From the IMG/VR virus record IMGVR_UViG_3300033076_000387, positions 1 through 33,280 of that record: a stretch of DNA of 33,280 bases; one strand, written 5' to 3'. This document shows, piece after piece, positions 1-33,280 of this stretch. Within the stretch, counting starts at the first letter, position 1. Each line of letters starts with the position of its first letter. The position numbers were made by a program, and so were the translations under genes. This DNA comes from a virus. Lineage: Duplodnaviria > Caudoviricetes. The notes under the pieces are model-generated. The model searched no databases. It saw only the letters and a list, made by a program, of their open reading frames with translations, and was not told where the DNA came from.

Positions 1-1866
1 CATCCAAATTGTGCCTGGAGTGTTTACATCATTGGTAATTTCAATTGTATTTACACGCCAAGAGTTTTGATTGATCTGTGTCCATGGATAATCAGTGTTG
101 GTGTACATTTGAATACCTGTTCTAACTTGTGGGGCTTGACCCACGCTGTTGCAACCTTCAATATTGATATTAACTGCACCAATAAGTGTTGTGTCTACTG
201 CGGGATCAATTGGAATGTTGTCATCTTTCAAGTTAACAACTTCAGGCAGAATACGATGTACTAATAACTTACCGGAATAGTCTTTTAAAAGTTTAATGTT
301 ATCGCGACGGAACTTACTGTTGATAGCAAGTCCTTTAATGAATTCATAACCATGGTCTTTCATAACAACTTTGTCATTTAGTGCGCCACGAGCATAGACC
401 ATTGTTCTACTTGCTTTGTTATAACTCCATTCAAGCGTGTCAGGATCTTGTGACCACACTGGACTTTCACAAGCAAAGGTTGCTTTGTTAACATCGCGAG
501 GTGCGTTCCAGCAGTCCAAGTCATAACGGTATGCTAACATTTTGTTTGGCACGCCACCTTCCGGAGCATCGGCATCAGGATAATAAATCTCAATTTGATT
601 CTTCTCTGTGTTAGTCTGCATGTGAATACGATCCACATAGCGAGGATCTAACTGGTCAAAGAACCAATGGCGCACACGCTGGTTACCAATACCTTGGAAG
701 CTTTGTCCGTTGAAGACCCAAATGTCACGAGCATCAATACCATAAACAGTGTTGTCTGTATTGGCCCAGCAGTTTTGTGTTAACAAGCCACGACCCTGGT
801 TAAACAATCTAACGCCCAGAATAGGTACATTGGTAGTTGTGTAGTTTAATGGTGTAAGCACAACTGTGTCCCAATATGAACACAAATATAATTGTCCGTT
901 AGCAGGGAAAGCATCTAGAACTTCTCCACGCAATGGAACTTCAAATTCGTTTGCGACATTAAGAATTGTTGGTTCCCATGTTAGCGGAACTTCGTTAAGG
1001 CCGAAGTTTTGACTCCAGCGTACAGTAACAGGATATTGTGTTGTAACATCATCTAAGTCAGTAGCAAATAAATTACCTGCTACAAGAATGTTACCTACAT
1101 TGGGCGTAGAGTAAATCCGGATGAAACCTGCTGTTAAGTTTTTCCAGTTTGGATTATAGTTCCAAGTATATTTTGCTGCTACTGATCCACCGCCAGGATA
1201 AGCACTACCAGGAGTTGCTGTATAGTTAATTGTTGTAGTTGTTGAACTTACAACTGTAAATGTTCCATCAAAGTAATTGTTAACACCGCTAATAACAATT
1301 TGTTCTCCAGCCGCATAAGGAGCTGTGGCGTATGGTGTTGCTAATGTAATTTGTTGTGTTGTGGCGTTGACATAAGCAATGTTAGAAATGTTACTTGGAA
1401 TCAATTGCTTATACATTACCAACTTAGCGCCTGGTTCATCAGGTAAGAAGAATGGTGCGTTGAATGTATCATTGAAGATTGGAATAGTACCGTTCCAAGC
1501 TTCTGTAATATTGATTTCTTGACTATAGTTAGAACCACTGTAGCCAGAACCTGCTACTGGGGTGATGTCGGTCCAAGATGATTCGCCCGCTGTAATCATC
1601 CACCAATGACCTTCATCTGTAGCTACGATAAGATAGAATTTTCCACTTTGTCTAAAGCCGCCTGAAATATAAGTTGGAGTACCTGTAATAGTGGCAAGAA
1701 TCTCAGTGTCGCCATTAACGCTACGAATGCCGCGAACATCTGTTTCAACATTCTCACCGGCATTGTATTCATTAGGACCCAATGCACTTGCGGGCACATC
1801 AGGCGTAAAGCTCATTTTACTGAAAGGGATTATTACTTCATCGTAAGATTTTTTAATTTGTGGCAT
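1..1866 (-). CDS. Tail hub / DNA-stabilisation protein (P22 gp10 / T7 gp12 position), 3'-truncated at window edge
   Basis: Missing from the ORF track. My manual translation from ATG 1866 (MPQIKKSYDEVIIPFSKMSFTPDVPASALGPNEYNAGENVETD...) stays open for 622 codons to base 1 (...PGTIWM). Has beta-propeller-like Trp/Gly motifs (VRWSQNFG, DIWVFNG), SD AGGA and an upstream TAAATA. Family assignment rests on size, motifs and synteny. Confidence 0.75.
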   Translation of the reverse strand, partial: MPQIKKSYDEVIIPFSKMSFTPDVPASALGPNEYNAGENVETDVRGIRSVNGDTEILATITGTPTYISGGFRQSGKFYLIVATDEGHWWMITAGESSWTDITPVAGSGYSGSNYSQEINITEAWNGTIPIFNDTFNAPFFLPDEPGAKLVMYKQLIPSNISNIAYVNATTQQITLATPYATAPYAAGEQIVISGVNNYFDGTFTVVSSTTTTINYTATPGSAYPGGGSVAAKYTWNYNPNWKNLTAGFIRIYSTPNVGNILVAGNLFATDLDDVTTQYPVTVRWSQNFGLNEVPLTWEPTILNVANEFEVPLRGEVLDAFPANGQLYLCSYWDTVVLTPLNYTTTNVPILGVRLFNQGRGLLTQNCWANTDNTVYGIDARDIWVFNGQSFQGIGNQRVRHWFFDQLDPRYVDRIHMQTNTEKNQIEIYYPDADAPEGGVPNKMLAYRYDLDCWNAPRDVNKATFACESPVWSQDPDTLEWSYNKASRTMVYARGALNDKVVMKDHGYEFIKGLAINSKFRRDNIKLLKDYSGKLLVHRILPEVVNLKDDNIPIDPAVDTTLIGAVNINIEGCNSVGQAPQVRTGIQMYTNTDYPWTQINQNSWRVNTIEITNDVNTPGTIWM

Positions 1867-1899
1867 AAGGATATGTTTCCTGTTGTATCCTTATATTTA
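1865..1899 (-). promoter_or_regulatory. TAAATA late-type promoter with hairpin over the hub-gene start
   Basis: TATTTA at 1894-1899. Inverted repeat ATAAGGATA (1865-1873) / TATCCTTAT (1886-1894) overlaps the start codon, with the SD in the loop. Confidence 0.6.
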
Positions 1900-1905
1900 G
1901 TGATA

Positions 1906-2139
1906 TTAAAATCCTAAGGCTATGCGTAACTTTTCAATCTCATGTTCATCACAAAGTATTTGAGTTCTAGTCCAACCGGTTTCAGGAATCCAGCGTTCAA
2001 TTAAGATCTCAAACTCTCCCTTGTTCCATTCCCTGCGTAAGACATGCATCTTGTAATCATCTCTGTTGACGATATTAGGTTCAGGCTTTTCTTTCTTTTC
2101 TGGCGTTTGTCCTGGGTGCGGTGTTACATATTTTTGCAT
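1906..2139 (-). CDS. Hypothetical protein (77 aa)
   Basis: SD AGGA, co-oriented with neighbours. Confidence 0.75.
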   Translation of the reverse strand: MQKYVTPHPGQTPEKKEKPEPNIVNRDDYKMHVLRREWNKGEFEILIERWIPETGWTRTQILCDEHEIEKLRIALGF

Positions 2140-2179
2140 TGTGTTTTCCTATAATTATGTGATACTTTATGATTTTTAT

Positions 2180-2449
2180 TCAAACGCCATACTCTGTATA
2201 GCTAAAATCATCGCAGTTGAATCTTTTGTTCAATCTACGAACTGCTGCCCTTGCAGATCCTTCATGCAAGTAAGTCATCTTGTAGTATTTCTTTGCGATC
2301 CCTCCCAATATTGGGGTAATGCTTCTAATGCCAATTGGTCGTTTTTTGTATAGTATGATATAGGTTGTTTCAGCTTGTGTTATTTCCCAAACAACTCCTT
2401 TTTCATCTTCTGCTCTATCTAAGATAATTGGTTCGGGTCTTGCCATCAT
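2180..2449 (-). CDS. Hypothetical protein (MARPEP...AVRRLNKRF), possibly a family conserved in large phages
   Basis: SD GGAG; ATGA overlap with the upstream ORF. Confidence 0.75.
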   Translation of the reverse strand: MMARPEPIILDRAEDEKGVVWEITQAETTYIILYKKRPIGIRSITPILGGIAKKYYKMTYLHEGSARAAVRRLNKRFNCDDFSYTEYGV

Positions 2450-2716: not shown

Positions 2717-2938
2717 TTATATCTCCCAATTAATTTCAAATACTCTGTAGTGTTGATCTTTTAGTGCTTCTAACATTTGAATGTGTTGTACTTCCTCTTT
2801 ACTTGCCCAATATCCGCCTAGAACTTTATGCGTATTATAAGTGGGTTTGAGTTCGCTAAAGTTTCCTTCATTGTTCAATTTAATCAACATATAGCAAGTT
2901 ATATGTGTGGGTGCCGTGAGTTCTTTAATTTCAGTCAT
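2717..2938 (-). CDS. Hypothetical protein (73 aa)
   Basis: ATGA translational coupling to 2935..3537. Confidence 0.7.
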   Translation of the reverse strand: MTEIKELTAPTHITCYMLIKLNNEGNFSELKPTYNTHKVLGGYWASKEEVQHIQMLEALKDQHYRVFEINWEI

Positions 2939-3537
2939 AGTGGTGTTGCCTTTAAATATTTTTGTATTTGGGGGAATTTAATTTGTGCGAGCAAATAGTT
3001 TTCTTTGCTAATCTTAAACCAACGGTATTCTAATTCCAAATTGGTGCCAGTATCATATGCGTATTCTTGGACTAATTGTCTTAGTTCAAAACGATCTTCT
3101 ACTTCAAGCATAGCAAATACATGTTCGCTTATTGTGCAAAGATATTTCTCTTTAATGCGTTTGCTGGGTCTATTTGCCAATTTGATTGAGCGAGAGGTTC
3201 TACTGCGTTTTGGAATAGCAGTCATATGATCGGGATTACAACATTCTTTATTGCCGCATGTCATACGCACTTCAATTTTTTCCAGTACTGCATCTGGATA
3301 ATGTTCTGCGTATATAAGTCTATTGGCTTGGGTCATTTGTTGGTGATTATTTTTATATGCACCAAACAAATTTCCTTGGCGTCCTTTTGCTCCAATCCAT
3401 TTGTGGCAATTTTCTTGTAAAGAGCCTTTAGTTATTTTCTCATTGAGCTTATCTGTATTCCAAGACCAATTGCTATTTGTATGTGTTATTACTTTTCTTG
3501 GTCCTGGACTATATCCTGGTTTTCTTCCTCTTGGCAT
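2935..3537 (-). CDS. Degenerate HNH / Zn-binding-loop homing-endonuclease-like protein, probably nuclease-dead DNA binder
   Basis: CHKWIGAK...ANRLIY...VRMTCGNKECCNPDHM aligns by eye with CWNWIG...AHRFSY...VCHKCDNPKCVNPEHL of 5747..6262. SD AGGAG; TAAATA at 3558-3563. Confidence 0.65.
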   Translation of the reverse strand: MPRGRKPGYSPGPRKVITHTNSNWSWNTDKLNEKITKGSLQENCHKWIGAKGRQGNLFGAYKNNHQQMTQANRLIYAEHYPDAVLEKIEVRMTCGNKECCNPDHMTAIPKRSRTSRSIKLANRPSKRIKEKYLCTISEHVFAMLEVEDRFELRQLVQEYAYDTGTNLELEYRWFKISKENYLLAQIKFPQIQKYLKATPL

Positions 3538-3592
3538 TGCTTATTTCTCCTATACTTTATTTACCAGTGCTATTCATAGTAGCCATCTATTG

Positions 3593-3814
3593 CTACTTGC
3601 TTGTTATTCCCAATTGTTCTAAATAATGTTGTTGATCTGGGTTAATCCATGTAAACCAGTGGTCGTGTTGACAGCAATATAATCCTTTGTATAAAGGATT
3701 TTTAGTACTGTTATGTATAATCAAATCACAATGTTTGTGTTTGGGATTTCTACTTACTAATTTAAAAATATTAACTTTTGTGGGTTTTATTTTTACCCAA
3801 TCATCACTTGCCAT
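3593..3814 (-). CDS. Small His/Cys-rich putative Zn-binding protein
   Basis: HKHC...LYCCQHDHWFTW pattern. Confidence 0.65.
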   Translation of the reverse strand: MASDDWVKIKPTKVNIFKLVSRNPKHKHCDLIIHNSTKNPLYKGLYCCQHDHWFTWINPDQQHYLEQLGITSK

Positions 3815-3832
3815 TTCATTGCCTTTTTAAAA

Positions 3833-3876
3833 AGATGCGCTACACTATATGTTGTTTGTGTGTTTGTTGTATCAAC
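3833..3876. repeat. 44-bp perfect direct repeat, copy 1
   Basis: AGATGCGCTACACTATATGTTGTTTGTGTGTTTGTTGTATCAAC, identical to 4594-4637. Confidence 0.97.
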
Positions 3877-4913
3877 TCGTGTTCAAATTTTATATCAAAT
3901 CCAGTTCTGGTCCTTACAAATTCATTGAGTGCAATTTCATCAATTAAATTCTCGCAAGCCCAACCATCATGTTCTAAAAAATGTCTGTTGTTTGTTTCTC
4001 TTAAAAATTCAACTATTGAATCCAAAACAACTCGTTCTAAATCCCTATAAATCGCAGTTTTTTGTTTTCCTGAAATAGGTAAAGTTCTAGTAATGCCATT
4101 CTTATCTTTTTTAGTTCTTTTTTGGCATTGGGGTTTGATGCAACTCCACATGACTTTAATATCTTGTTTGAGTCCAATAATAAATTCGTGTTGTTGTAAA
4201 AACTTGATCTTTGCCAGATCTCCGTCTAATTCTAAAAAACTAGTACTTTGGCTATATGCACTTATTTGACCTCCTTGGAATAATCCATTTATAAGTCGTT
4301 TAATTACTTGTTCATCTGTTTCTGCTTGAATGGCTAATTGCTGTCTAATTGCTGTTCTGTTTTTGATGTAATCATTGATTTTGAACATATATTCGTCATT
4401 GCCCAATTGCTGACTATATTGTAATAACAATGTTGGGCAAGCGCATACTATATCATAATTGTGTTTGAATCCGGAATCAGCTAGTACTTGTTGTTTTTCT
4501 TGGCGTCTGTGATTTTGGAGCCAATGCCAACGACGACTACTTGAATCTTTGTAATTAATCCCTGTTTCTACTTCTTTTTGGAACTTATTGCTGAGATGCG
4601 CTACACTATATGTTGTTTGTGTGTTTGTTGTATCAACATTTTCCTCAAGGAATTTTAGTCCAGTTCCATTCAAGCGATACTTTTTTGTTATTTTCAAATC
4701 TTTGTTATATCTCTCATCCACACAAATCAATAACAAATCACGCAAATATCTACCTAGTTCATGTCGTTGACTGCCAAAGTTATCTTTGTGATGTATCCAT
4801 CTCGTGCCCAGTGCTTGTGGTCTGTCCTCACGCAAATACTTCTTACAAAAAGTAATGGCTTTGACAATTCGTTGTTGACATCTCTTATCACTAAAATTTG
4901 GTTGATATGTCAT
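3840..4913 (-). CDS. Minimal family-A polymerase-like protein (putative N-terminal winged-HTH plus Pol palm/fingers); candidate replication initiator or primase
   Basis: Motif A-like YDIVCACPTLL, motif B-like R..K.LINGLFQG and motif C-like FLEHDG in correct order. No exonuclease domains; only 357 aa. Confidence 0.6.
   Translation of the reverse strand: MTYQPNFSDKRCQQRIVKAITFCKKYLREDRPQALGTRWIHHKDNFGSQRHELGRYLRDLLLICVDERYNKDLKITKKYRLNGTGLKFLEENVDTTNTQTTYSVAHLSNKFQKEVETGINYKDSSSRRWHWLQNHRRQEKQQVLADSGFKHNYDIVCACPTLLLQYSQQLGNDEYMFKINDYIKNRTAIRQQLAIQAETDEQVIKRLINGLFQGGQISAYSQSTSFLELDGDLAKIKFLQQHEFIIGLKQDIKVMWSCIKPQCQKRTKKDKNGITRTLPISGKQKTAIYRDLERVVLDSIVEFLRETNNRHFLEHDGWACENLIDEIALNEFVRTRTGFDIKFEHELIQQTHKQHIV
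4594..4637. repeat. 44-bp perfect direct repeat, copy 2 (intragenic, inter-domain linker)
   Basis: Identical to 3833-3876; 761 bp offset, so it is read in a different frame. Confidence 0.97.
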
Positions 4914-5185
4914 ATGAATTCCTTTGCTTTATTGTCAAAGAGATCAACATATCTGCCTTGCAGTTTTTCCATAAAAACAAATTTATTGGCTGATTCAAGA
5001 TGAGTATAAAAACGCCTTTTGTATTCAATGGAATTCATATTATGGTCAAACATATAAGATTGCACAATATAATTTTGATTGAAACGAGTAGAATGAAATT
5101 TGAGTCGCTTGCGTGGGTTCTCTTTCATCAAAGCAAATTTTTCTTTGAGTTGTTCATATAAAATATCAACATTGGATTGCATCAT
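4910..5185 (-). CDS. Hypothetical protein (91 aa)
   Basis: SD GAGGA; ATGA overlap with the Pol-like gene. Confidence 0.75.
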   Translation of the reverse strand: MMQSNVDILYEQLKEKFALMKENPRKRLKFHSTRFNQNYIVQSYMFDHNMNSIEYKRRFYTHLESANKFVFMEKLQGRYVDLFDNKAKEFI

Positions 5186-5191
5186 CAGTCC

Positions 5192-5611
5192 TCAAAATAA
5201 ATCATTAAATGTTGTATTATGTTGGGGACGCAAATTGCCTAATTTGTATTCCCATTTAGTTTCGGCTCTAATTGCACTGGCTAACTCTTGTTGTATAACG
5301 CCATTTTTACCAGTGGTCCAATCAACTAGATTGCTGTCAACTAAATCCTTAATTGGGCAACGCATCATTTCGCCATGCTTTTTGTCATAGCCGCGGTGTT
5401 TGTTATACTTGGGATACGAACCCATGGGATGTGTTCTATTAAACAAGTACTGGATTTCTCCAACTGTAAAATAACCCTTTTCATTAAAATTGTCCAGGGC
5501 TCGTTTAAGTGCGGGCCAACCATTCTTATCCAAATCTGCGTCATACATATTTTTGAATCTGGTTTGGCAACTATCCAGCCATTGTGCTACTTTATAGGTA
5601 GGTGTTGTCAT
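5192..5611 (-). CDS. Hypothetical protein, first gene of the replication-type operon
   Basis: Strong SD AAGGAG directly after a consensus promoter. Confidence 0.8.
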   Translation of the reverse strand: MTTPTYKVAQWLDSCQTRFKNMYDADLDKNGWPALKRALDNFNEKGYFTVGEIQYLFNRTHPMGSYPKYNKHRGYDKKHGEMMRCPIKDLVDSNLVDWTTGKNGVIQQELASAIRAETKWEYKLGNLRPQHNTTFNDLF

Positions 5612-5628
5612 TGTGTGCTCCTTGTGTT

Positions 5629-5657
5629 ATTGTATATTTACTTATGCCTAATGTCAA
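5629..5657 (-). promoter_or_regulatory. Sigma70 promoter TTGACA-17-TACAAT with TAAATA embedded in its spacer
   Basis: Minus strand reads TTGACA ttaggcataagTAAATA TACAAT. Confidence 0.8.
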
Positions 5658-5712
5658 ATAACTTGGGCAAATAGGTAAATTTTCGGGGAAATGAAAAAGG
5701 TAAAAGAAAGAG

Positions 5713-5740
5713 TTGCACTTTTTCTTTCAGGTATTATAAT
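5713..5740 (+). promoter_or_regulatory. Sigma70-like promoter TTGCAC-16-TATAAT for a leaderless HNH mRNA
   Basis: TATAAT lies 6 nt before ATG 5747; no SD. Confidence 0.6.
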
Positions 5741-5746
5741 AAACAC

Positions 5747-6262
5747 ATGATTACACAAGAACTTTTAGATAAATTTAATACCAAATATAAAATTGACCCA
5801 GAAACTAATTGTTGGAATTGGATTGGTGGAACTCGCATTAAGAAATGGGGATATGGAGGTTTCAAGGTAAAAGGTTTTAACTGGCTTGCACATAGGTTTA
5901 GTTACTATGCATATAAAGGCGATCCTGGCAAATTATTAGTTTGTCATAAATGCGATAATCCTAAATGTGTAAATCCTGAACATTTATTTTTAGGAACTCA
6001 AAAAGATAATGTTGATGATATGATGTCTAAAGATAGACATGGTAGTGGTGGAAATTCGGGTTCTGGATTAAAAGGGACAGATAATCCTTCGGTTAAACTT
6101 ACAGAAGATAATGTTCTTGAAATACGAAGAATTGGAAGGATTGGAACTTCCGGACGAGGTGGTCGTGGGGGAAATACTGAAGAATTAGCAAAACAATTTG
6201 GAGTTAGTAAAGTTTCAATCGCTAATATCTTACACAGAAGAACTTGGAAGCATATAAAGTAA
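5747..6262 (+). CDS. HNH endonuclease (HNH_3 / Zn-loop type) with C-terminal HTH
   Basis: CWNWIG, AHRFSY, VCHKCDNPKCVNPEHLFLGTQKDN; C-terminal LAKQFGVSKVSIANILHRRTWKH. Confidence 0.92.
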   Translation: MITQELLDKFNTKYKIDPETNCWNWIGGTRIKKWGYGGFKVKGFNWLAHRFSYYAYKGDPGKLLVCHKCDNPKCVNPEHLFLGTQKDNVDDMMSKDRHGSGGNSGSGLKGTDNPSVKLTEDNVLEIRRIGRIGTSGRGGRGGNTEELAKQFGVSKVSIANILHRRTWKHIK

Positions 6263-6374
6263 AAAGGATACCTGACATTGCATCAGGTATCCTAGTGTAG
6301 GGGATCGGGAGATTTATAACTAGACAGAAAACACAATATTGGCAACACAAGGATAATGTCTAATTACGCCCTAC
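6260..6374 (-). ncRNA. Putative antisense small RNA C
   Basis: TAAATA 6380-6385. Nested stems TGTAGGG/CCCTACA and TAGACA/TGTCTA. Complement of AAGGAtaATGTCT. Ends in a terminator. Confidence 0.5.
6261..6293 (-). terminator. Intrinsic terminator
   Basis: 11-bp stem AGGATACCTGA/TCAGGTATCCT plus U-tract on the minus strand. Confidence 0.85.
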
Positions 6375-6382
6375 AAAATTAT

Positions 6383-6610
6383 TTATTCTTCTAATTCGTC
6401 TAACTCATCCTCAAGCTCTTTAAGTCTGCGTTTCTTCTTTTCCACTTCTTGGATAAGATTAAATTCTCGGCGGAGTTGATGTAATGCTTCTCCAACCTCA
6501 TTACCAGTTGGATAGCGACTATAGAATTCTTTGAGAATGGGTAGCAATTCTGCTACGCCTTCTGGGTTAGCTTCTTTAATGTAGAATTCAAATTTGAATT
6601 CAGGTTTCAT
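6383..6610 (-). CDS. Hypothetical protein with C-terminal coiled coil
   Basis: SD GGA; ATGA overlap with the upstream ORF. Confidence 0.75.
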   Translation of the reverse strand: MKPEFKFEFYIKEANPEGVAELLPILKEFYSRYPTGNEVGEALHQLRREFNLIQEVEKKKRRLKELEDELDELEE

Positions 6611-6819
6611 TTTGTTTTCTTTCCAAACATGTTATCACATACCATGGAAAAATGTTCTGCACGATTTTTTGGTTCAATTAGAATCCAAGTTAAGATCAAT
6701 GCAAAAACAAATGCACAAGCGTTAGTCACAGCTTTGAATACTTTGATGATTAACCAAAGACAAACGCCGATGAATATGGGCCAAAAAATAATGTTACCAA
6801 TAACATCTGCTGAAAACAT
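6607..6819 (-). CDS. Small membrane protein (two hydrophobic segments)
   Basis: SD AAGGAG, own sigma70 promoter. Confidence 0.75.
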   Translation of the reverse strand: MFSADVIGNIIFWPIFIGVCLWLIIKVFKAVTNACAFVFALILTWILIEPKNRAEHFSMVCDNMFGKKTK

Positions 6820-6845
6820 TGTGCTCTCCTTGTTGCGATATATGT

Positions 6846-6874
6846 ATTATGCTATAGATTGAGGTTTGTGTCTA
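6846..6874 (-). promoter_or_regulatory. Sigma70 promoter TAGACA-17-CATAAT
   Basis: Exact 17-bp spacing upstream of ATG 6819. Confidence 0.7.
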
Positions 6875-6885
6875 TTTGTTTTGGA

Positions 6886-6903
6886 TGTTGTGTTTTTACA
6901 ACA
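6886..6903. promoter_or_regulatory. Operator-like palindrome TGTTGT-N6-ACAACA
   Basis: Inverted repeat 11 bp upstream of the -35 box. Confidence 0.45.
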
Positions 6904-6942
6904 CTAATACTAAAAGCTGATGCTCATATTTTAGTACTATAG

Positions 6943-7023
6943 AAAAACCCCCGAACCTTGCGGAACGAGGGTATTCTAATTTTAGGATTACTTAAAGGGA
7001 ACAAATGTCGTCAAACTATTTGT
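6943..7023 (-). ncRNA. Putative antisense small RNA B
   Basis: TAAATA 7029-7034. Complement of AAAGGGAacaaATGTCG. 3' hairpin ACCCUCG-UU-CC-GCAA-GG-UU-CGGGGGU plus U-tract. Confidence 0.55.
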
Positions 7024-7045
7024 AAAAGTATTTATGCTAATTGTC

Positions 7046-7135
7046 AAAAGAAAACCCCTGAACCTTTTGGGAACAGGGGAATTCATTACCGAGGATTTTC
7101 ATGTCATGCTACTCATAGGCCAATACTTGTAGCAC
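7046..7135 (-). ncRNA. Putative antisense small RNA A
   Basis: TAAATA 7139-7144. 5' stem UGCUAC/GUAGCA. Complement of GAGGAttttcATGTCA. 3' hairpin CCCCUG-UU-CC-CAAAA-GG-UU-CAGGGG plus U-tract. Confidence 0.55.
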
Positions 7136-7147
7136 TTGTATTTAGTC

Positions 7148-7176
7148 AAAAAAGTCCCCGATGCCTAGTCGGGGAC
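7148..7176 (-). terminator. Intrinsic terminator ending the head/fibre operon
   Basis: GTCCCCGA/TCGGGGAC stem plus U6. Confidence 0.9.
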
Positions 7177-7205
7177 AAAGCTATATTAACACATTAAAAT
7201 ATGAC

Positions 7206-7712
7206 TCAGTGATTTTCACTAAAGTCATCAAAGACCTCGGCTCTTGCCGGGCCTAGTCGCTCCAACAACATCGTGTCGTCTTCGCTAAAATATTTACTGG
7301 ATAGGTTCGTAAAATATCCCATAGCAAATAAACGCTCGTTTAGTGTTAGGTCAGGTTGATTCTTTCTTGCATATAACATTGGTCTGCGTTTACGCAAATT
7401 AACATTTCTGCTACTGCACCAATACACTTCAAATTGTTGTTTTTCTAACCAAGTTAGAAATTCTGTTCGTTGTTCAACTGGAACGCAATACACGCTCCAC
7501 CACATGTTATCTTTTTGTTTGTAAAAAACTTGATCTTTTACAAATTGACATTCAATTGGCTTTGTTCCACATACAGCATAATTATAATCATCTGGTTCTG
7601 GTACGGCATATTCAGTTTCATATGCCGTGGGTCTAACCCAACTGATATGTTTACTAATTGCGATTCGTGGATCGTCTAACTTCTTTGTCTTTTTCAATCT
7701 TGGCGTTTTCAT
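7206..7712 (-). CDS. Hypothetical protein
   Basis: Likely start is ATG 7712 (MKTPRLKK), 5 nt after the variant motif CTAAATT. Confidence 0.7.
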   Translation of the reverse strand: MKTPRLKKTKKLDDPRIAISKHISWVRPTAYETEYAVPEPDDYNYAVCGTKPIECQFVKDQVFYKQKDNMWWSVYCVPVEQRTEFLTWLEKQQFEVYWCSSRNVNLRKRRPMLYARKNQPDLTLNERLFAMGYFTNLSSKYFSEDDTMLLERLGPARAEVFDDFSENH

Positions 7713-23282: not shown

Positions 23283-23284
23283 AT

Positions 23285-25143: not shown

Positions 25144-25148
25144 ACAAA

Positions 25149-25188
25149 TATTTATGATAAATTTTATGCGATTGCTCCAGGTTAAATA
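25149..25188. promoter_or_regulatory. Divergent pair of TAAATA motifs
   Basis: Minus-strand TAAATA 25149-25154 faces TerS; plus-strand TAAATA 25183-25188 faces the GNAT. Confidence 0.65.
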
Positions 25189-25210
25189 TCATGCACTGAA
25201 AGGAACTGCA

Positions 25211-25702
25211 ATGAACTTTACTTGGACTCCCGCAACTGGTAATGATGTGGCCGACATCGTTGCCATGGCACAACAACATTTCCAAACTGAGATTGATACA
25301 ATCTTCAATCCCGATCCTGTTGCTTACAGTAGAAATATTACATTCGCTGTAATCAACCAATTCTATCTCCCAGGCACAGATCTCTTATCTGTTTGCAGAG
25401 ACGAAAATAATCGTCTGCTTGCTTATACCTGGGCCAAATCTAATGACAGAGCACCTTGGAGCGATGACCCTATGGTCGTTGTTCGCATGGCACATGTGGC
25501 ATTAGATTTATCTTCTAAAACCCGTATCCGTTTAATATTAGACATGTTAGAGCTTTGGGAAAACTTTGCTCAATTCTCTAAAATGCCTATTATCTGTAGT
25601 ACTACTATGCGACGCGAACAAGATGCTTTTTTAAAACTTCATGCTCGCGTTGGTTATGATATCCGCGGTTCGTATGCTTACAAACGAATCACTCTAAAGT
25701 AA
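25211..25702 (+). CDS. GNAT-fold acetyltransferase-like protein
   Basis: W.PAT..DV.DIV.MA start, LLAYTWA strand, LHARVGY end. Start moved to 25211 (SD AAGGA). Confidence 0.65.
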   Translation: MNFTWTPATGNDVADIVAMAQQHFQTEIDTIFNPDPVAYSRNITFAVINQFYLPGTDLLSVCRDENNRLLAYTWAKSNDRAPWSDDPMVVVRMAHVALDLSSKTRIRLILDMLELWENFAQFSKMPIICSTTMRREQDAFLKLHARVGYDIRGSYAYKRITLK

Positions 25703-26123
25703 CTCTCAACATCCAGCACAACTTGCCCAGGGCCAATACGCGGTCTTGGGCGTAGTTAGCAATCTCATCGTGCTCTTCTAATTCTGCAACTTCAATCAAT
25801 TCTTCATAACATTCTTTGAGATGTTTAACATCATCATAGACTGCTGTAATCATTTCTAATGCCGAACCATTCATGGGCATAGGAGGAATATGACTATCAT
25901 CTAACATAGCTTGTGGATCATCGGGCATGAACTCATATATGGTTCTTAGCAATTCACCAATAGTGTCAATTTGACCTTGCAAGTCTTCATATACCTTACC
26001 CAATAGTTCATGATCCGCAGTAAAGTTGCGTCCCACAATGTTAACATGGGCGATGTGGCTGCGAATATACGCAACAAAGTTGTCATTAAAGACTTGTGTT
26101 AGTTGTTCTGCTGTTGTCATCAT
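25689..26123 (-). CDS. dps: Dps / ferritin-like protein
   Basis: HVNIVGRNF..DHELL...YE....IDTIGELLR and terminal K..WML motifs. Confidence 0.88.
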   Translation of the reverse strand: MMTTAEQLTQVFNDNFVAYIRSHIAHVNIVGRNFTADHELLGKVYEDLQGQIDTIGELLRTIYEFMPDDPQAMLDDSHIPPMPMNGSALEMITAVYDDVKHLKECYEELIEVAELEEHDEIANYAQDRVLALGKLCWMLRVTLE

Positions 26124-26124: not shown

Positions 26125-26889
26125 TTATCTGTATTGTGCTAATTCTTGCTGTGTCCAAGGACGACCTGTTCTTGGATTAATCTCTTGACCAGCGAACGGC
26201 CCTGTTGTAGGGAAGTTATAATTTTGTCCAATGTTACCTGGTGTTAACATTGCGGCTACACCTAATCCACCTTTGGCAATATTGCCTAATACTTTATTAG
26301 CTGCCATTTGACGAATCATAGCTGTAGTTTTATCTAATAAACTTGCTTCTCCGGCAGCGGCTGCTTGTGGCGCTGCCGCTGTTGGTGCTACAGGAGCAGT
26401 TGGAGTTGCACCTATTGGTACTACTGGGCGAGCAACTTGTGGAACAGTTTGTGTTGGAACATTGTAAGTTGCTGTCGGGCTTATTGGTCCCATTGGACGA
26501 GCAACTTGAGCACCTGTTTGCATTGCTTGTCTAGCGGCTGCTCGTTGTGCAATACCTTGTTCACTGGCCATCTTAGCATCAGCTAAAGCTTGTGCGGCAT
26601 CGGCACTTGATTTCCAAGCACCATATAACTTGCTACCACCAAGTGCGGCTGCGGCAGCACCGGCTGCAGGAACAATATAAGGGGCAGCACCCAAACCTAC
26701 TGTTGTTGCCACAGTTTCAGCACTTGTGCCTACTTCAGGAATTCTTGTTGCAGGTGCTGGAGGTTCTCCAACATCCGCTACTACTGGAGTTGGAGCTTTT
26801 CTTTGCTTTTGTGCTTCAGCTTGAAGAAACGCATTTATTTCATCATCTGTATAACCTTCAGCTTTTGCGGCTTCACGATCAAATGCCAT
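26125..26889 (-). CDS. Ala/Pro-rich putative ejection / internal virion protein
   Basis: AK.EGYTDDEIN.FL N-terminal motif; position in the ejection cluster. Confidence 0.6.
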   Translation of the reverse strand: MAFDREAAKAEGYTDDEINAFLQAEAQKQRKAPTPVVADVGEPPAPATRIPEVGTSAETVATTVGLGAAPYIVPAAGAAAAALGGSKLYGAWKSSADAAQALADAKMASEQGIAQRAAARQAMQTGAQVARPMGPISPTATYNVPTQTVPQVARPVVPIGATPTAPVAPTAAAPQAAAAGEASLLDKTTAMIRQMAANKVLGNIAKGGLGVAAMLTPGNIGQNYNFPTTGPFAGQEINPRTGRPWTQQELAQYR

Positions 26890-26898
26890 ATTAATTCC

Positions 26899-29385
26899 TT
26901 ATCTATTAAAATCGCCTAAAGGCTTACGGGCTGCTTTTCTAGCAAACTCTGTGCCAAAATCCCAACTACGAGTTTCTGGATTATATTCAGGTACTGGATA
27001 ATGCTTGAACGCATCAACAACAGCACCTGGATTCTTGCCATCCGGATTGTATTTGGCAATGTATGCGGCACGAGCAGCATAAATGCCATCATATTGTTTA
27101 TCCAGCTTAGCCTTCTCTGCACTCCATGCACGATTAAACTCTTCAGTAGTTTTAAGTTCTGGATGAGCAGACTTAAATTCACCACGGTATGCGGCTGTGT
27201 CTTTTGTAAATTGGTCTCTTGTCATTAAACTTAAACCAGAATACAATGGTTGGCGTGTAATGTCCACATTAGCCTGTGCGTTAATCTTATGTTCAGCTTC
27301 ACTGATAGCGCCTGGACCTGCGTTAGCTTTTAATGTTAACGGATTGATCTGTGCGTTTAGACCGATTTGACGATATAGAACTTCTTTTTGTCTATCAGTT
27401 AAATTCAATGCTGCGACACGCTGACTTAAATCAGCTTGGTCTTTAAAGTTACCAGTAATCAAATCACGGATAATATTTCCAACTTCGCCTTTGCCACCTT
27501 GTAACAAGCCAGCAAGTTCAGGATTGTTTAGAATACCATCTGGACCTTTAATTTGTTCTCTACGGATACGGGCAATTTGTGCGCCTGCATCAGCTTTTGG
27601 CGTAATATCTTCTGCGCCATACTTAACAAATTCTTCTTGTTGCTTCTTATTGATAGCAACGCCAGTTTGCATACCAGCGATAGGTTGTGTAACTGCGCTT
27701 GGAACTTGTCCTGGAGCAACTGGGCCGCCTGCAGGAGCTTGTGTGGCTGCGCCAGCTGGCATAGCGCCTGGAGCAACTGGACGAACTGCGCCACCTGCTG
27801 TTGGAGCTTGTCCTGGGAATCCAGCAACACCTGGAACTGCCGCAGGTTGTGCCAAATCATAACCATATGCTGTGCGGAATTGTTGACGCTCTTCTGGACT
27901 CTTGAATGGACCATTGATAGAAACATATTCTTTTTCTGCTTCCAATACATTTTGTCCGTGTTTCTTGGCCAAGTCAATAACAAGACCACGATCCATCTTA
28001 CGCAATGCACCAGCTTCTTCTAGTTTAGTTAATCCGCTTGTTGGGCCTGTATAACGAGCACCACTTGCTGCATCAACCAAGCGTGTGCGGCCTTGCTCAT
28101 CACTTTGAGCACGGAGAATCTGTCCATTAGGACCTTGGAAGAATGTGCCGCTTGTTGTAACTTTAGCGCCACCTGTTGTGTAAGCGATTAAATCATTTGT
28201 AGCAATTTCTTTTCCGTCTGCTGTATAACCTTTTAATGGCAAACCTTTGGCATTGACTTGAATCATTGCTTGCTTACCACTTTCATCACTACCTTGAACC
28301 CACTTGTTACCAAAGCCTAACTTGATAGCTTCTTCACCTGCAAGTTGTGGACTGATAAAGCCCAATAAAATCATCTTTAACCAAGAACCTTCTTGGCTTT
28401 GTAATTCTCTAGCAATGGTATTGCCGGCCTTTTTATCGCCTGTAGCTGCGGCCGCTGCCAATGCTGTTGCTTGCTGTTCTGCTTCTTTCTTTTTGACTTC
28501 TTGTGTCATTAATTCATAAGCACGGTCACCGGCACGCTCACGGATCCAAGCAGGAGCAGTTTCATCATTACGCAACTTTAACAAGTTCATTGGATTATCT
28601 TGATCTTGTTGGTAAGTGTTAATGAATTGTTCGCTGGTTCTAACAGGAGCTTGTGCAGGCTTGCCAAGTGCATATGGACTTTCGGCTTGTGCTGCAATTT
28701 CAGGAGCAACTGGTTGTGTTGCTCCACTTGCAGGAGCCATTGTACCACCTAGGCGTTGGTCAACGATCTTACGAACATTTTCTTCTCCACCATTTGCTGC
28801 GGCAGCTTGTGGGCTGATTGTGCCATTTTGTAGATAATCAGCAAGACCTTTTGCGCCCAAAAAGTGAGCAGCACTTAAAGTCTGTGGATTTACTTCCACG
28901 CCATAATGTTGTAGATACTTTGCGTTGTTTTGTGTGACAGCATTTTGTCCAGCTTGCATTTGTTCTGGAGTTGCTTGTGTAATATCAGCTGGTAAGCTTG
29001 GATTTAATCTACGAGCATCTTGCCATGCACCTTGAGTAATGCCATATTGTCCATATGCTGTGCTTTTTTCTGGAGCATGATAACCAATATTAGGACGAGA
29101 GCCACTTTCTGCTTGTGCAATTTGTGCATTATAAGCAGCCATATCTGGTACTACAGGAGCAACAGGTTGCGCTACAGGCATTTGTTGTACTGGCTTAACT
29201 GCAACAGGTTGTATTGCAGGAGCCATTTCTTCTTTGGTGGTGCGTTCTACAGTTCCATCACCGTATGTTTTAATTTCTTGAGTCTTAACTGCGGTATTGG
29301 CAAACTCTTCTTCACGCTTTCTGCGTTCTTCTTCAGTTTCCCAATCACCTAAGTAATTGCCCAGTGCGTCATATTGTGCAGCCAT
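26899..29385 (-). CDS. Ejection / internal virion protein with lysozyme-like (transglycosylase) domain
   Basis: IAQAESG...STAYGQYGITQGAW...AAHFLG near the N-terminus. Confidence 0.75.
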   Translation of the reverse strand: MAAQYDALGNYLGDWETEEERRKREEEFANTAVKTQEIKTYGDGTVERTTKEEMAPAIQPVAVKPVQQMPVAQPVAPVVPDMAAYNAQIAQAESGSRPNIGYHAPEKSTAYGQYGITQGAWQDARRLNPSLPADITQATPEQMQAGQNAVTQNNAKYLQHYGVEVNPQTLSAAHFLGAKGLADYLQNGTISPQAAAANGGEENVRKIVDQRLGGTMAPASGATQPVAPEIAAQAESPYALGKPAQAPVRTSEQFINTYQQDQDNPMNLLKLRNDETAPAWIRERAGDRAYELMTQEVKKKEAEQQATALAAAAATGDKKAGNTIARELQSQEGSWLKMILLGFISPQLAGEEAIKLGFGNKWVQGSDESGKQAMIQVNAKGLPLKGYTADGKEIATNDLIAYTTGGAKVTTSGTFFQGPNGQILRAQSDEQGRTRLVDAASGARYTGPTSGLTKLEEAGALRKMDRGLVIDLAKKHGQNVLEAEKEYVSINGPFKSPEERQQFRTAYGYDLAQPAAVPGVAGFPGQAPTAGGAVRPVAPGAMPAGAATQAPAGGPVAPGQVPSAVTQPIAGMQTGVAINKKQQEEFVKYGAEDITPKADAGAQIARIRREQIKGPDGILNNPELAGLLQGGKGEVGNIIRDLITGNFKDQADLSQRVAALNLTDRQKEVLYRQIGLNAQINPLTLKANAGPGAISEAEHKINAQANVDITRQPLYSGLSLMTRDQFTKDTAAYRGEFKSAHPELKTTEEFNRAWSAEKAKLDKQYDGIYAARAAYIAKYNPDGKNPGAVVDAFKHYPVPEYNPETRSWDFGTEFARKAARKPLGDFNR

Positions 29386-29394
29386 CTTTATTCC

Positions 29395-30117
29395 TTAAAA
29401 TTTGATACCAAAGTCCAAGCCTGCTTTGTAGCCGCTGGTAGAAGAACCTTGTGTGCCGCGGAAGTCTGGATTATAACTTGCCGCAGGTGTTCCAAAGATT
29501 ACGCTGGCATATTGGTTGTATAGTTGTTGCGGTGTCATTGCAGCACTTACACCTTGACCGGCAGCACCTAAAGCTTGTCCAATACCGCCTTGACCTAGTT
29601 GAGCAAGTTGACTTGCAACGCCTGCTCTTTGTCCAGCAATATCACGCTGTACTTGTGCGGCTGTTTGCATTTGTGCGGCTTGTGTGGCATTTGCTAATTG
29701 TCTATCTGCAAGTGCTTGGCGTGCTGAACCTAACATTCCTGTGCCACCAAACTGTGCTCTTTGGTTTGCAACATTTTGTGCATACTGAGCTTCAGCTGGA
29801 GCGAGAGCAGCACGGATTTGATTTGCTTCATAATCAGGATTGAACAAACTTTCCAAGCCTGTAATACCTGTGCGTAACGCTGATTCGCCGGTACCACCTA
29901 ATGCTTCTTGTGCTTGGCGTGCTGTGCCTGCAAGATTTTGTGCGGCATTTAATACACCGCCTGCGTTTGTATTATAAACATCAGTAGCGCCTTTAACCGC
30001 TTGTTCATATGTTGGCTTAATTGTGCCAGTGAAGAACTGCGTTTGGGCTGCGATTTGATCTTTCTGCTCCTGCGTTAAGCTAGGAGTTGTTGTTGAAGAA
30101 CTTTTACCAAAACTCAT
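29395..30117 (-). CDS. DNA ejection / pilot protein (P22 gp7-like)
   Basis: GKSSSTTT start, Ala/Gln helices, GMLGSARQA motif; TAAATA 30139-30144. Confidence 0.65.
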   Translation of the reverse strand: MSFGKSSSTTTPSLTQEQKDQIAAQTQFFTGTIKPTYEQAVKGATDVYNTNAGGVLNAAQNLAGTARQAQEALGGTGESALRTGITGLESLFNPDYEANQIRAALAPAEAQYAQNVANQRAQFGGTGMLGSARQALADRQLANATQAAQMQTAAQVQRDIAGQRAGVASQLAQLGQGGIGQALGAAGQGVSAAMTPQQLYNQYASVIFGTPAASYNPDFRGTQGSSTSGYKAGLDFGIKF

Positions 30118-30156
30118 TATATTATTCCTTAATGTTAATATTTAGCGTAATTAAAT

Positions 30157-31932
30157 TCAAGGAGCTACAGGTCCCGCGGCATACGCATTGGCTGCTTCTA
30201 CAGCCGCTTGATTATATGGTGTCACTCTCACTGCACTTGCACCAGGTTCAGGAGTAACATAATGACCTTGTGCCGCTAATATCATTTCTTCTGGAGTTAA
30301 TTCTTTAGCAACATGTTGTAAACCCCATGGCGTTACAGGAGCGGCTGCTTGATTATATAACTGTGCATTAAATGTTGGACCAGACTGGAAAGGATGTGAA
30401 CCCCAGAAGTATTGACTTTGTTCTGGAGCATTTGTATTGTAAAACGCTGTTGGCTGTATCCATCCTGGATTTAAACCAAAGCGTGTTTGTAATCCAGCTA
30501 CAGGGCCAGTGCCGCCAGGCGGCGTAGTTGGAGTAGTTGGAGTTGTTGGAGTAGTTGGATTGTTTGGAGTAACAACAGGGAATACAACAGGAGTTGTAGG
30601 ATCAGTCCAACCGCCAGGATTATATGGATCAACGACTTCTGTTGGTACCGTAGGAACTTCAGTTACTGGTAAAGTCGTATCAATTGGAGTTACAGTAACA
30701 TCAGTAGGATTGCTTGGATCGCGTGGAGCAACAATTTCAAGTTCGCCTAAATCTGTGACATCACCGCCTGTGCCTGATCCTGTGTAAGTGCCGGAACCGC
30801 TGGTATGAGTTGCACCATTAGTATCTGTCCAAACGCTAGAACCATCTGGATTAATTGTGAGCCAAGTGCCATCATCATATGTATAAGTTACGCCACCGGC
30901 TCCGCCTGCTTGCGCTGTGCCGCCGCCATGGTTAACAGTTTGTCCTGTAGCATCTGTATAACTTGTTGTGCCATCAGGATTAGTTGTAAATGTTGAACCA
31001 TCATCAAATGTATATGTGCTTGGAGTTACTGGTCCAGTAACTGCGCCTGTATTTTCATCTACTGGAGCAACTGGTCCTGGTTCAGTGCCAACTTCCCATG
31101 CGTTAGCGGCAGCATTCCACTTTGCTGTGCCATTGTCAATTTGTTCTAATGTAGCTAACTGTGAACCTGCTGTTAACTTACTTGTATCTGCATATTGCGG
31201 AGCTTCTGCTGTGCCAGCTGCGCCTGCAATTTCAACACGGAATGGTTCACCACCACTTTGATCTGTTAAAGTATTAATTAAGCCAGGATCAACATTCTTC
31301 ATCAAGTCTGCTGTTTGTTGTGCATCTAGAATTGTTAGTTGTCCGTTAGGATTGAACTGTTCAATTAAGCCTGTTGAAGGATTGTATTCAAACACTGGAG
31401 CTTGTTGTCCTGGAGCAGGCGTAGATCCAATTGCGGCACCATCCGGGGCTCTTGTGATTGTGCTGCCATCATCATAGTGATAAACTTGATTACCTGTGCC
31501 ATCATTGTAAATGCCAATAACAGTACTTGTACCAGCACCCATTACGCCACCGGTTAAGGCACCTTTTACAATGTCTCCGCCAGTTAAGGCAGCACTTGTT
31601 GCACCTGCTGCTGCACCACCTGCGGCACTTGATAATACACTGCCGGCACCTGCTTCAGCGGCAGCGGCTGCACCTGCACCGCCTGCGAAACCTGCTGCGC
31701 CACCTAGCAATGCACCTTCTAGAACATCACCACCATTTGCGGCTGCATTTGCTGCGCCACCTAATGCACCTGCTGCTACAGGAGGAATGCCCAGTGCCAT
31801 ACCGCCAATACTAACGATAGCACCAATTGGGTTATCTACTACTGATTCAACTGCATTACCAATTGCATCTCCAACATCACTTACGACATCGCCGACTGCA
31901 TCTAATACATCTCCAACGAATCCACCACACAT
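30157..31932 (-). CDS. Gly/Ala/Thr-rich virion-associated (ejection-type) protein
   Basis: MCGG start, glycine zippers, three Y.(Y/F)DDG(S/T) repeats, PT linker. Confidence 0.65.
   Translation of the reverse strand: MCGGFVGDVLDAVGDVVSDVGDAIGNAVESVVDNPIGAIVSIGGMALGIPPVAAGALGGAANAAANGGDVLEGALLGGAAGFAGGAGAAAAAEAGAGSVLSSAAGGAAAGATSAALTGGDIVKGALTGGVMGAGTSTVIGIYNDGTGNQVYHYDDGSTITRAPDGAAIGSTPAPGQQAPVFEYNPSTGLIEQFNPNGQLTILDAQQTADLMKNVDPGLINTLTDQSGGEPFRVEIAGAAGTAEAPQYADTSKLTAGSQLATLEQIDNGTAKWNAAANAWEVGTEPGPVAPVDENTGAVTGPVTPSTYTFDDGSTFTTNPDGTTSYTDATGQTVNHGGGTAQAGGAGGVTYTYDDGTWLTINPDGSSVWTDTNGATHTSGSGTYTGSGTGGDVTDLGELEIVAPRDPSNPTDVTVTPIDTTLPVTEVPTVPTEVVDPYNPGGWTDPTTPVVFPVVTPNNPTTPTTPTTPTTPPGGTGPVAGLQTRFGLNPGWIQPTAFYNTNAPEQSQYFWGSHPFQSGPTFNAQLYNQAAAPVTPWGLQHVAKELTPEEMILAAQGHYVTPEPGASAVRVTPYNQAAVEAANAYAAGPVAP
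30524..30559. repeat. 9-bp tandem repeat GTAGTTGGA x4 encoding (PTT)n
   Basis: Directly visible, one mismatch. Confidence 0.85.
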
Positions 31933-31933
31933 A

Positions 31934-32374
31934 TTAAATTTCCTTTACAGCATTGAAGCCGCGTATTTTATATCCAAGTCTGCGATAGTATTCGGCTACC
32001 GCGTCTACATTGTCTCCGGTTGTTTGTCCAAGCCATAACTCTTTTGCTTTATTTGATCTTGCCCATGATTCTAATTCTTCAATTAGAGCCTTAGCAACAT
32101 CATGGCGACGATACGCCGGAATAACAAACACACCTATATCAGTTACACGCAGAACATCATTAAAAACATTTTCATGTAGGATGCCGCATGTATAACCTAT
32201 TAACTTACCATCCAGCAAGGCTAACATTACTAATGATTTTGGACTTGTCACAAGTGCTCTTATCTTTGGCACTGTGGCAACTCCTAATCCTGTGTGCGTT
32301 AACATGATATCTGTTAACGCTTTAATTGCTGCTATATCTTCTTCTACTGCTGGTCTATACACTATTTGGGTCAT
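31934..32374 (-). CDS. GNAT acetyltransferase
   Basis: YRPAVEEDI, VFVIPAYRRHDVAKALI and YYRRLGY motifs. Start ATG 32374, 6 nt after TAAATA 32381-32386. Confidence 0.88.
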   Translation of the reverse strand: MTQIVYRPAVEEDIAAIKALTDIMLTHTGLGVATVPKIRALVTSPKSLVMLALLDGKLIGYTCGILHENVFNDVLRVTDIGVFVIPAYRRHDVAKALIEELESWARSNKAKELWLGQTTGDNVDAVAEYYRRLGYKIRGFNAVKEI

Positions 32375-32383
32375 ATGCAATAT

Positions 32384-33277
32384 TTATGGCTTGACTACCT
32401 GAGCTGAGAAGCTTCTCAAGCCTAATACGCTATTAGTTAGCAATTGACTGCCTGCATTATCATTGAAAATTATTTCCAAAATATACCAATAGTAAGCACC
32501 TTTGAAAGTTGTTTGTCCCAAGCCTGGCTGGTCTACCACGCTGATGAATAGAGTTTCAACATCATTGGTAACGCCTGCTATAGGAGTATTAACTAAGATT
32601 TGCTTGCTTACAACTGTTTTGTCAAAGAAAAATACAGAACCCAAATTGCCGGGCACAGTTGAAGTTTCGGCAATATATCTATTAATCTGCACTGTGTAAT
32701 AAAAACTTCCTGGATAGCGGCTTGGATCTGTGTAGATCAAATTGTTTAACTGAGCATTTACTACAACACGATCCTGGGCACCATTAACTGTAACTTTAGC
32801 GTTGCAATCAGTACTGATAGTTGTATCATTACTGTTTAGATCAATTGTGCCGCCTGTGCTGGGCGCAACTAATGGATATTCATCTATAGAACGAGCAATA
32901 ACATAAGCGCCGGTGCATTCCACTACGCCTATAGGACTGTAATAACCATCATAGCTGGGATCAGTAACGCCTGTGACATTAATAGGTTGACCGTTAATGA
33001 AAGGAGGTTGAACGAATGGAATTAAAAAAGTAAATTTCCAAGTGCGACTATCTAACATCTCACTAGTGCTTAAGGCAATAGGAGCAACATACAGTGAAAC
33101 ATTGGGTAATATATTTCCATTGTATTGTGTAAATGGCACACGATAGTTGCCTGTTAAGTCACCGGTGATATCGCTGTTAAAACCAGCAAGATCCTGACCT
33201 ATACTGCCAGGACCACTTAACACATAGTTAAGACCATCTAATACGCCTTGACCATCACTGACTGGAAATTGTGCCAT
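32384..33277 (-). CDS. Beta-rich virion structural protein
   Basis: 297 aa ORF in the tail module; ATG overlaps an upstream TAA. Confidence 0.65.
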   Translation of the reverse strand: MAQFPVSDGQGVLDGLNYVLSGPGSIGQDLAGFNSDITGDLTGNYRVPFTQYNGNILPNVSLYVAPIALSTSEMLDSRTWKFTFLIPFVQPPFINGQPINVTGVTDPSYDGYYSPIGVVECTGAYVIARSIDEYPLVAPSTGGTIDLNSNDTTISTDCNAKVTVNGAQDRVVVNAQLNNLIYTDPSRYPGSFYYTVQINRYIAETSTVPGNLGSVFFFDKTVVSKQILVNTPIAGVTNDVETLFISVVDQPGLGQTTFKGAYYWYILEIIFNDNAGSQLLTNSVLGLRSFSAQVVKP

Positions 33278-33280
33278 TAT

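Follow-up and report, generated by a model that had tools for sequence, protein, structure and literature searches.

MiniFlayer and MulchRoom, satellites of Streptomyces phages, carry their own capsid and packaging genes and depend on a large virulent helper; they are without primases and are described as relying on help for replication, and MiniFlayer, which lacks an integrase, has a podovirus-like tail fibre (PMC10690885, in the part of the text covered). The stretch described here, called the window, is the whole IMG/VR record IMGVR_UViG_3300033076_000387 of 33,280 nt, a podophage whose virion operons start at the hexamer TAAATA. The window and its relatives likewise have their own capsid and packaging genes, but they differ in carrying, on 33-40 kb, the full set of podovirus-type genes, often with a primase or helicase of their own, and in the class of the putative helper. 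Sharing of a late promoter is not mentioned for MiniFlayer and MulchRoom in the text covered (PMC10690885). A tblastn search with the window capsid against 50,697 phage records returned five matches, MiniFlayer and MulchRoom not among them, a comparison at the sequence level only. The original prediction had regarded a satellite with its own particle as the reverse of classical satellites; MiniFlayer is a precedent for a satellite with its own capsid (PMC10690885). We give a probability of roughly 75% to the following reading: the early genes of the window phage would be read by the host, its cycle would be completed only with the late sigma factor and the lysis functions of a T4-related jumbo phage, and its small RNAs would cut capsid synthesis of this helper.

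For the Vibrio satellite PLE, the parts of the papers covered describe that structural genes of the helper ICP1 are lowered by the domesticated nuclease CapR (PMC8096241) and down-regulated by the trans-acting small RNA SviR (10.1101/2022.04.08.487710). CapR, first taken to be HNH-derived, is described as a relative of T5orf172/GIY-YIG-type homing endonucleases, and the analogy to the window is therefore functional only (PMC8096241). PLE is chromosomal and hijacks virion parts of its helper, whereas the window has no integrase, its own particle and several RNAs placed behind the helper's late motif. Compared with PLE, PICI and P4, no integrase was found in the 44 window open reading frames (ORFs) or in 149 representative proteins of relatives (one from each cluster of up to 700 aa, and singletons of 75-700 aa), and helper capsid or tail is not taken; helper capsid interference is here a prediction from RNA pairing. 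Capsid-forming PICIs have their own head and packaging genes as well, but are integrated and obtain tails from the helper (PMC10690885, in part). The virophages Sputnik, Zamilon and mavirus resemble the clade in having their own capsid and a polymerase-A-fold primase domain, but they have eukaryotic hosts, an unrelated capsid lineage and the use of the helper's whole transcription factory, while the window has an SU10-type capsid, portal and terminase. Virophages share a late promoter motif with their giant helper, and the Lavidaviridae have a double jelly-roll capsid and a eukaryotic host. The likeness is best regarded as analogy, not kinship.

The window is a near-complete podophage genome (about 33.3 kb) of a clade widespread in aquatic metagenomes; the source runs containing the window phage include wastewater, sediment and freshwater metagenomes. 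CheckV completeness is 93% for the window and 91-100% for most full-length relatives. The window ends interrupt one gene pair, as determined by comparison of the junction with relatives: in four of these, 14 extra codons follow the point at which the window ORF stops, directly before the gene starting at 33277, so that about 40-45 nt were lost at the contig join and the genome is essentially complete. Terminal repeats were present in 8 of the 25 long relatives examined, at 33.9-39.5 kb. On the strength of the end junction and the terminal repeats, it was ruled out that the window is a piece of a larger genome. The major capsid query returned 559 related IMG/VR stretches (clade of at least 559 contigs), and the clade set used below comprises the window and 20 of the 25 long relatives, i.e. 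21 genomes. A sister podophage clade, that of MW202484, matches it in gene order and core genes (identity about 50% for the terminase and 61% for the capsid) and likely resembles the autonomous ancestor. A 22-kb sister-clade contig (L287) sits in a Dechloromonas bin, a weak pointer to betaproteobacterial hosts. The scan of GTDB genomes revealed no flanked prophage of the clade. Neither this clade nor a full-virion phage using the late promoter of a helper is described in the literature searched, which did not extend to subscription papers.

All 44 ORFs were searched against Pfam and PHROGs at an E-value of 0.05. An SU10-type major capsid (14656-15828), a portal (17404-19677) and a large terminase (20247-21869) were found, together with virion structural matches at 1-1866 and 12777-13979. 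These genes bear out the predicted head, tail and packaging module, the completeness of the tail being inferred. The virion genes and their motifs are arranged as follows:

1-1866, minus strand: tail/virion structural protein (phrog_3287, E-value 7e-24), its last ~14 codons cut off by the contig join.
1894-1899, minus strand: TAAATA before the tail gene, found near that gene family in 18/20 clade genomes.
8017-13979, minus strand: two tail-fibre-like proteins and an adaptor-like virion protein, from weak PHROGs matches and composition.
14570-14575, minus strand: TAAATA 5 nt upstream of the ATG of a 193-aa gene, with leaderless geometry (20/20 genomes).
14656-17406, minus strand: TAAATA (17401-17406), 113-aa gene, scaffold-like gene and major capsid.
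17404-19710, minus strand: TAAATA (19705-19710) and portal (20/21 genomes).
20247-23287, minus strand: TAAATA (23282-23287), conserved 272-aa and 108-aa genes, and large terminase.
24793-25154, minus strand: possible small terminase (identity taken from position and size only), with TAAATA 5 nt ahead of it.
25183-25702, plus strand: TAAATA and a conserved 163-aa gene that the sister clade has as well.
26125-33277, minus strand: putative internal virion/ejection proteins, GNAT and tail protein, with TAAATA at 30139-30144 and 32381-32386.

The window contains 19 copies of TAAATA, 15 of them on the coding strand, and 14 of the 19, read by eye, stand directly before a gene or small RNA, in line with the claim that structural operons start at this motif. 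Across the 21 clade genomes TAAATA is the top intergenic hexamer, with 185 of 406 coding-strand copies falling within 3.9% of the sequence. Its position is kept before the portal (20/21), the 193-aa gene (20/20) and a 240-aa gene (21/21); capsid and terminase sit inside TAAATA-led operons. In 80 clade loci 370 upstream copies were counted vs 21.3 expected, and 77 loci had at least two; for 46 sister-clade loci the values are 13 vs 9.6 expected, with at least two copies in a single locus. Because the sister clade has the same gene order and no enrichment, TAAATA is a clade-specific feature and not an effect of AT content. The distance from motif to ATG peaks at exactly 5 nt (53 of 241 cases in the clade, none in the sisters), with a second hump at about 19-28 nt, and no -35 conservation was detected in 255 TAAATA flanks of the clade genomes. 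T4 late promoters consist of a short -10-type motif without a -35 element, about 5 nt before the start, which is read by the sigma factor gp55. The geometry of the clade motif is the same, and the RNA hairpins begin 3-5 nt past it. The exact T4 octamer TATAAATA is absent from the window and occurs 0-5 times per relative; position -1 of the clade motif is C in 45% and A in 36%. An archaeal TATA box was considered and rejected: RNAs and leaderless genes begin about 5 nt after the motif, and Shine-Dalgarno (SD) sites and intrinsic terminators are bacterial.

The 44 window ORFs gave no match to a sigma factor, RNA polymerase, single-strand binding protein (SSB), helicase, integrase, repressor or endolysin, and the 149 representatives none to a sigma factor, RNA polymerase, integrase or repressor, one weak resolvase-type helix-turn-helix match aside. 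In six-frame comparison nothing from the variable region of the window (1.9-7.7 kb) is present in more than 9 of 20 relatives; a private reader of TAAATA would therefore have to be a universal core protein. A gp55-like sigma factor was found in six frames in 6/6 large genomes and in 0/23 clade and 0/7 sister genomes.

A link to such large genomes is given by one gene of the variable region:

2180-2449, minus strand: 89-aa homolog, by sequence matches, of a T4-related jumbo phage gene with no function assigned.

It is present in 11/21 clade genomes, 0/8 sisters and 10/10 jumbo contigs, the latter having been chosen through this gene. All 15 matches of the family in 50,697 GenBank phage records are jumbos of 285-490 kb (PA5oct and kin, Atu_ph07, Phosso, SCTP-2), and among the IMG/VR homologs are contigs with T4-type capsids that reach 543 kb. 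TAAATA ranks first among gene-upstream hexamers at 70 loci surrounding the 89-aa homologs; in the jumbo contig G028, 75 of 146 copies lie upstream of genes vs 5.6 expected. The proposed comparison of late motifs thus showed the same TAAATA and the same 5-nt peak (47 of 220 cases in jumbos). In G028 and related contigs, the start lies exactly 5 nt past the motif for about one in five TAAATA-led genes, which implies that late mRNAs may be widely leaderless in jumbos of this kind. G028 encodes a late sigma factor, polymerase, primase, helicase, SSB, endolysin and holin. The part of a study of jumbo phage CBB covered reports a gp55-like sigma factor and an ATAAATA motif ahead of structural genes (PMC5259590), and group 2 jumbos are described, in the part covered, as recruiting the host polymerase via sigma factors of their own (PMC7824862). 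Jumbo capsid relatives were present in 4/4 tested runs containing the window phage, a count without negative control. The PA5oct/Atu_ph07-like jumbo group is supported as the candidate helper class. More clade genes have jumbo homologs, among them L090:8216-8533 (G012) and L107:18638-18874 (G008), including a holin 48% identical to that of G028. L231:1335-1628 (G028) and its homologs encode a ~100-aa protein conserved in PA5oct/Atu_ph07-like jumbos, with no PHROG or PDB match.

The window also carries the three anti-RBS small-RNA cassettes which had been predicted:

7048-7144, minus strand: cassette 1 (RNA 7144), predicted pairing with MSELLNGR-subtype jumbo capsid starts.
6943-7034, minus strand: cassette 2 (RNA 7034), predicted pairing with MSELFE-subtype jumbo capsid starts.
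6262-6385, minus strand: cassette 3 (RNA 6385), TAAATA, long stem and terminator (fold z -5.5).

Each consists of TAAATA, 81-114 nt and a hairpin with T-run, starting at 7144, 7034 and 6385, and each contains the reverse complement of SD-spacer-ATG. Clade-wide, such a complement occurs in 12 of 19 cassettes (TAAATA, ~40-110 nt, terminator; two short cassettes were left out) vs 2.6 by shuffling. Pairing with head-gene starts from 80 jumbo loci was scored, and RNA 7034 with the capsid start was the strongest of 110 RNA-gene pairs. When windows were restricted to coding sequence, the mean was matched by 3/400 shuffles for RNA 7144 and 5/400 for RNA 7034, and the best score by 1/400 and 35/400, respectively. 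For RNA 7034, 21/22 MSELFE starts pair better than any of 1,162 other jumbo gene starts; for RNA 7144, all 14 MSELLNGR starts are in the top 1%. Crosswise pairing (7034 with MSELLNGR, 7144 with MSELFE) fails in both directions. A CCC of RNA 7034 faces the RBS, and the matching GGG is found in 14/15 MSELFE starts vs 0/61 other capsid starts, a feature not used in picking this subtype, which is nevertheless one lineage. We judge it fairly probable from these pairings that the small RNAs target jumbo capsid genes. The signal emerged only after 80 more capsid loci had been added; duplex scan and ungapped scoring against 1,169 starts of 10 jumbo contigs had given no clear target. Blastn of 6258-7210 against GenBank phages gave 12 matches at chance level only, Rfam gave none, and no target in the phage's own genome was among the matches listed at 13-nt exact identity. 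That 48 of 62 pattern matches were capsid starts is circular and was not counted as evidence.

Genes presumably expressed early, including one that bears on replication, form a short minus-strand operon:

5192-5657, minus strand: sigma70-type promoter TTGACA-17-TACAAT (5657-5629, overlapping a TAAATA) and first putative early-operon gene.
3840-4913, minus strand: polymerase-A-fold protein of 357 aa without exonuclease, likely a primase/replication initiator according to predicted fold and motifs.

The promoter matches the consensus at 11/12 positions, although the window overall has no excess of sigma70 sites (26 vs 24.6 in shuffles). AlphaFold2 modelled the 357-aa protein with a pLDDT of 92.7 from an alignment of 69 sequences (33 from the single sequence). 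The model has polymerase-A palm and fingers, a catalytic Asp, an HD motif and no exonuclease; D154, K205 and H315-D316 are invariant across the 69 sequences. It aligns with the Klenow fragment (VIA-align Z 11.8, rmsd 4.5, 228 aligned), and its best named viral structural matches are virophage primase-helicases; a PDB sequence search with the family gave no match. The protein, which we take to be of the TVpol-like primase/polymerase type, is likely a primase or replication initiator. The original statement that no helicase, SSB or full polymerase is recognisable holds for the window, whereas 'no primase' is probably wrong. The gene occurs in 3/21 clade genomes, and primase and/or helicase genes in 10/20 relatives, eight relatives having nothing recognisable. 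The satellite trait of missing key replication genes, primase included, is therefore not found here, and replication initiation is likely self-encoded in part. In relatives, primase and helicase lie in the early operon; an own replication start is hence probable, with elongation borrowed from host or helper. Of the two copies of an exact 44-nt direct repeat (3833-3876 and 4594-4637), one lies within the polymerase-A-fold gene and the other at its end; the homolog in G013 has a shorter repeat of similar spacing, that in G025 none. The repeat is a possible replication origin. Contigs of run X2 join across 3569-5195 with intervening sequence, and in X1 and X5 the sequence beyond 3569 is a different one, so this replication cassette seems exchangeable within one population.

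The same protein enters one alternative, an autonomous phage with its own unrecognised TAAATA-reading activator, either a core or a virion-carried protein. Several core proteins have no family match, a sigma70-type early operon is present, and the 357-aa fold is common to single-subunit RNA polymerases. The 357-aa gene is, however, restricted to three genomes and skipped in the variant joint, and the universal core genes mostly lie in TAAATA operons themselves, several being common to the motif-less sisters. Such an activator would also leave the endolysin loss, the identical 5-nt geometry and the RNA-capsid start matches unexplained, and we consider it unlikely.

Endolysins were found in 1/21 clade genomes vs 8/8 sisters examined; for the GH19 endolysin family alone, the numbers are 0/22 vs 9/20. 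One further relative has a weak endolysin-family match within a putative virion protein. The absence of lysis genes claimed for the window applies to endolysin; two small membrane proteins (ORFs 7745-8017 and 19845-20033) show weak holin-like matches, so that lysis genes may not be wholly absent. The first of these is listed here:

7745-8017, minus strand: coiled-coil and membrane-anchor protein, holin-like at best, with a homolog in jumbo G028.

Next to it, in 10/21 genomes, lies a 168-aa gene (7206-7712) with a conserved PEPDNYN motif, only 12 homologs and no family. PDB sequence searches with this family and with the lysozyme-like stretch of an 828-aa protein gave nothing. Holin-like genes, the single endolysin-bearing member, the replication-initiation genes that many members carry and sigma70-like sites before seven core genes of the 21 genomes would suit a facultative exploiter, which completes a poor cycle alone by leaky late expression and weak holin-type lysis or passive release and is boosted by, and competes with, the jumbo phage. 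Endolysin is, however, missing in 20/21 genomes, and TAAATA lacks a -35 partner and departs from the -10 box of sigma70; this alternative is held to be improbable. Somewhat less probable still is that a sigma factor of the host reads TAAATA and that clade and jumbos use it independently. As to the host, the sole clade match in GTDB genomes comes from an actinomycete bin, on a contig of 3.2 kb that is too short to be trusted. Against this alternative, the jumbos carry a dedicated gp55-like sigma factor, the early promoter of the window is canonical sigma70 and the sister clade with the same genome plan is without the motif.

Several findings weigh against dependence on a jumbo helper. No function is known for about ten of the universal core proteins, and a private activator brought in with the virion might be among them; T7 RNA polymerase, too, is a structural match of the 357-aa protein (Z 9.6). 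One relative, G022, carries its own M15 endolysin, and the 168-aa gene beside the holin-like gene may be a novel lysin. In PA5oct TAAATA is weakly enriched (10 of 89 copies upstream in the 40 kb examined), and the PA5oct paper, in the text covered, gives other motifs (PMC7318152). Jumbos of this type are very common (~8,800 stretches) and co-occurrence is uncontrolled, and gene sharing alone is weak evidence because the sister clade also shares accessory genes with jumbos. For the small RNAs, one background start beats the best capsid match of RNA 7144, and no target of RNA 6385 was found. The capsid subtypes, each one lineage, were fetched by patterns written after the match had been seen, which makes the coding part of the subtype pairing circular. 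Exact IMG/VR searches for complements of RNA 7034 (25 nt) and RNA 7144 (18 nt) gave 0 matches. Family-wide, 4/25 segments reached p ≤ 0.05 for capsid starts vs 3, 2 and 2 for three other head genes (1.25 expected each).

The window carries two HNH genes:

2935-3537, minus strand: HNH-derived protein whose catalytic His is replaced by Met, preceded by TAAATA 3558-3563.
5747-6262, plus strand: intact-looking HNH homing endonuclease (Pfam/PHROGs), missing in part of the population (joint 5699-6293).

The catalytic His is known from His-Me finger nucleases. It is kept in the plus-strand gene and replaced in the other, in agreement with the intact and the dead HNH read at first. In the subfamily of the latter it is missing in 5/8 members and kept in three, which suggests a domesticated DNA binder, likely not cutting. 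Strains without the plus-strand gene have, in two runs, a short hairpin-like stretch at 5699-6293 instead; by this joint, the gene is a polymorphic homing endonuclease insertion.

Weighing all this, we return to the dependence on a jumbo helper, which we infer from genome content and motif. The original observation is confirmed in its particle genes, TAAATA, RNA cassettes and HNH pair, without the claim of no primase; its core, a phage with its own particle that borrows late transcription and probably lysis from a T4-like/jumbo helper, is supported, except for the start of replication, which is likely self-encoded in part. The phage supplies its own head, packaging and tail genes. The host sigma70 polymerase would transcribe the small early operon, including the polymerase-A-fold protein, while the virion operons would stay silent until a gp55-like sigma factor of the jumbo, on host RNA polymerase, reads TAAATA. 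The same motif is predicted to fire the three small RNAs, two of which would cover RBS and first codons of the mRNAs of two capsid subtypes and lower the number of helper heads; the Met-type HNH and the 89-aa jumbo homolog may also interfere with the helper. Finally, the jumbo endolysin would open the cell. Chance co-infection, waiting as an episome and riding on the helper are all candidate ways of meeting it.

One further gene of the window lies within the virion gene block:

25689-26123, minus strand: Dps/ferritin-like gene with jumbo homologs (21/21 clade genomes).

Two small paralogs rich in Gly, Pro and Lys and conserved clade-wide are located at 23999-24639 and could be DNA-condensing core proteins. 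PDB sequence searches with the 272-aa and 89-aa families gave nothing.

The sister clade, which has no TAAATA enrichment and no 89-aa jumbo homolog but has endolysin and replication initiator in 8/8 genomes, offers a before/after comparison of an autonomous phage turning into a parasite. On balance we lean towards an origin of the clade from an autonomous podophage, in which late regulator and lysin were lost, virion operons were rewired to the jumbo sigma factor and antisense RNA arrays were acquired per jumbo lineage, making it a bacterial counterpart of the virophages. Satellites are usually recognised by missing virion genes, and gene-content screens would miss this clade because its members look like complete phages; if the reading is true, they are currently counted as ordinary phages and could be detected from promoters alone. 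The RNA arrays provide a sequence-based means of assigning parasites to helpers, and the cultured jumbos PA5oct and Atu_ph07 make the promoter claim testable. The reading, if true, also bears on why such phages never plaque alone. Abundant aquatic jumbo phages would then have viral parasites of their own, which bears on models of phage-host dynamics.

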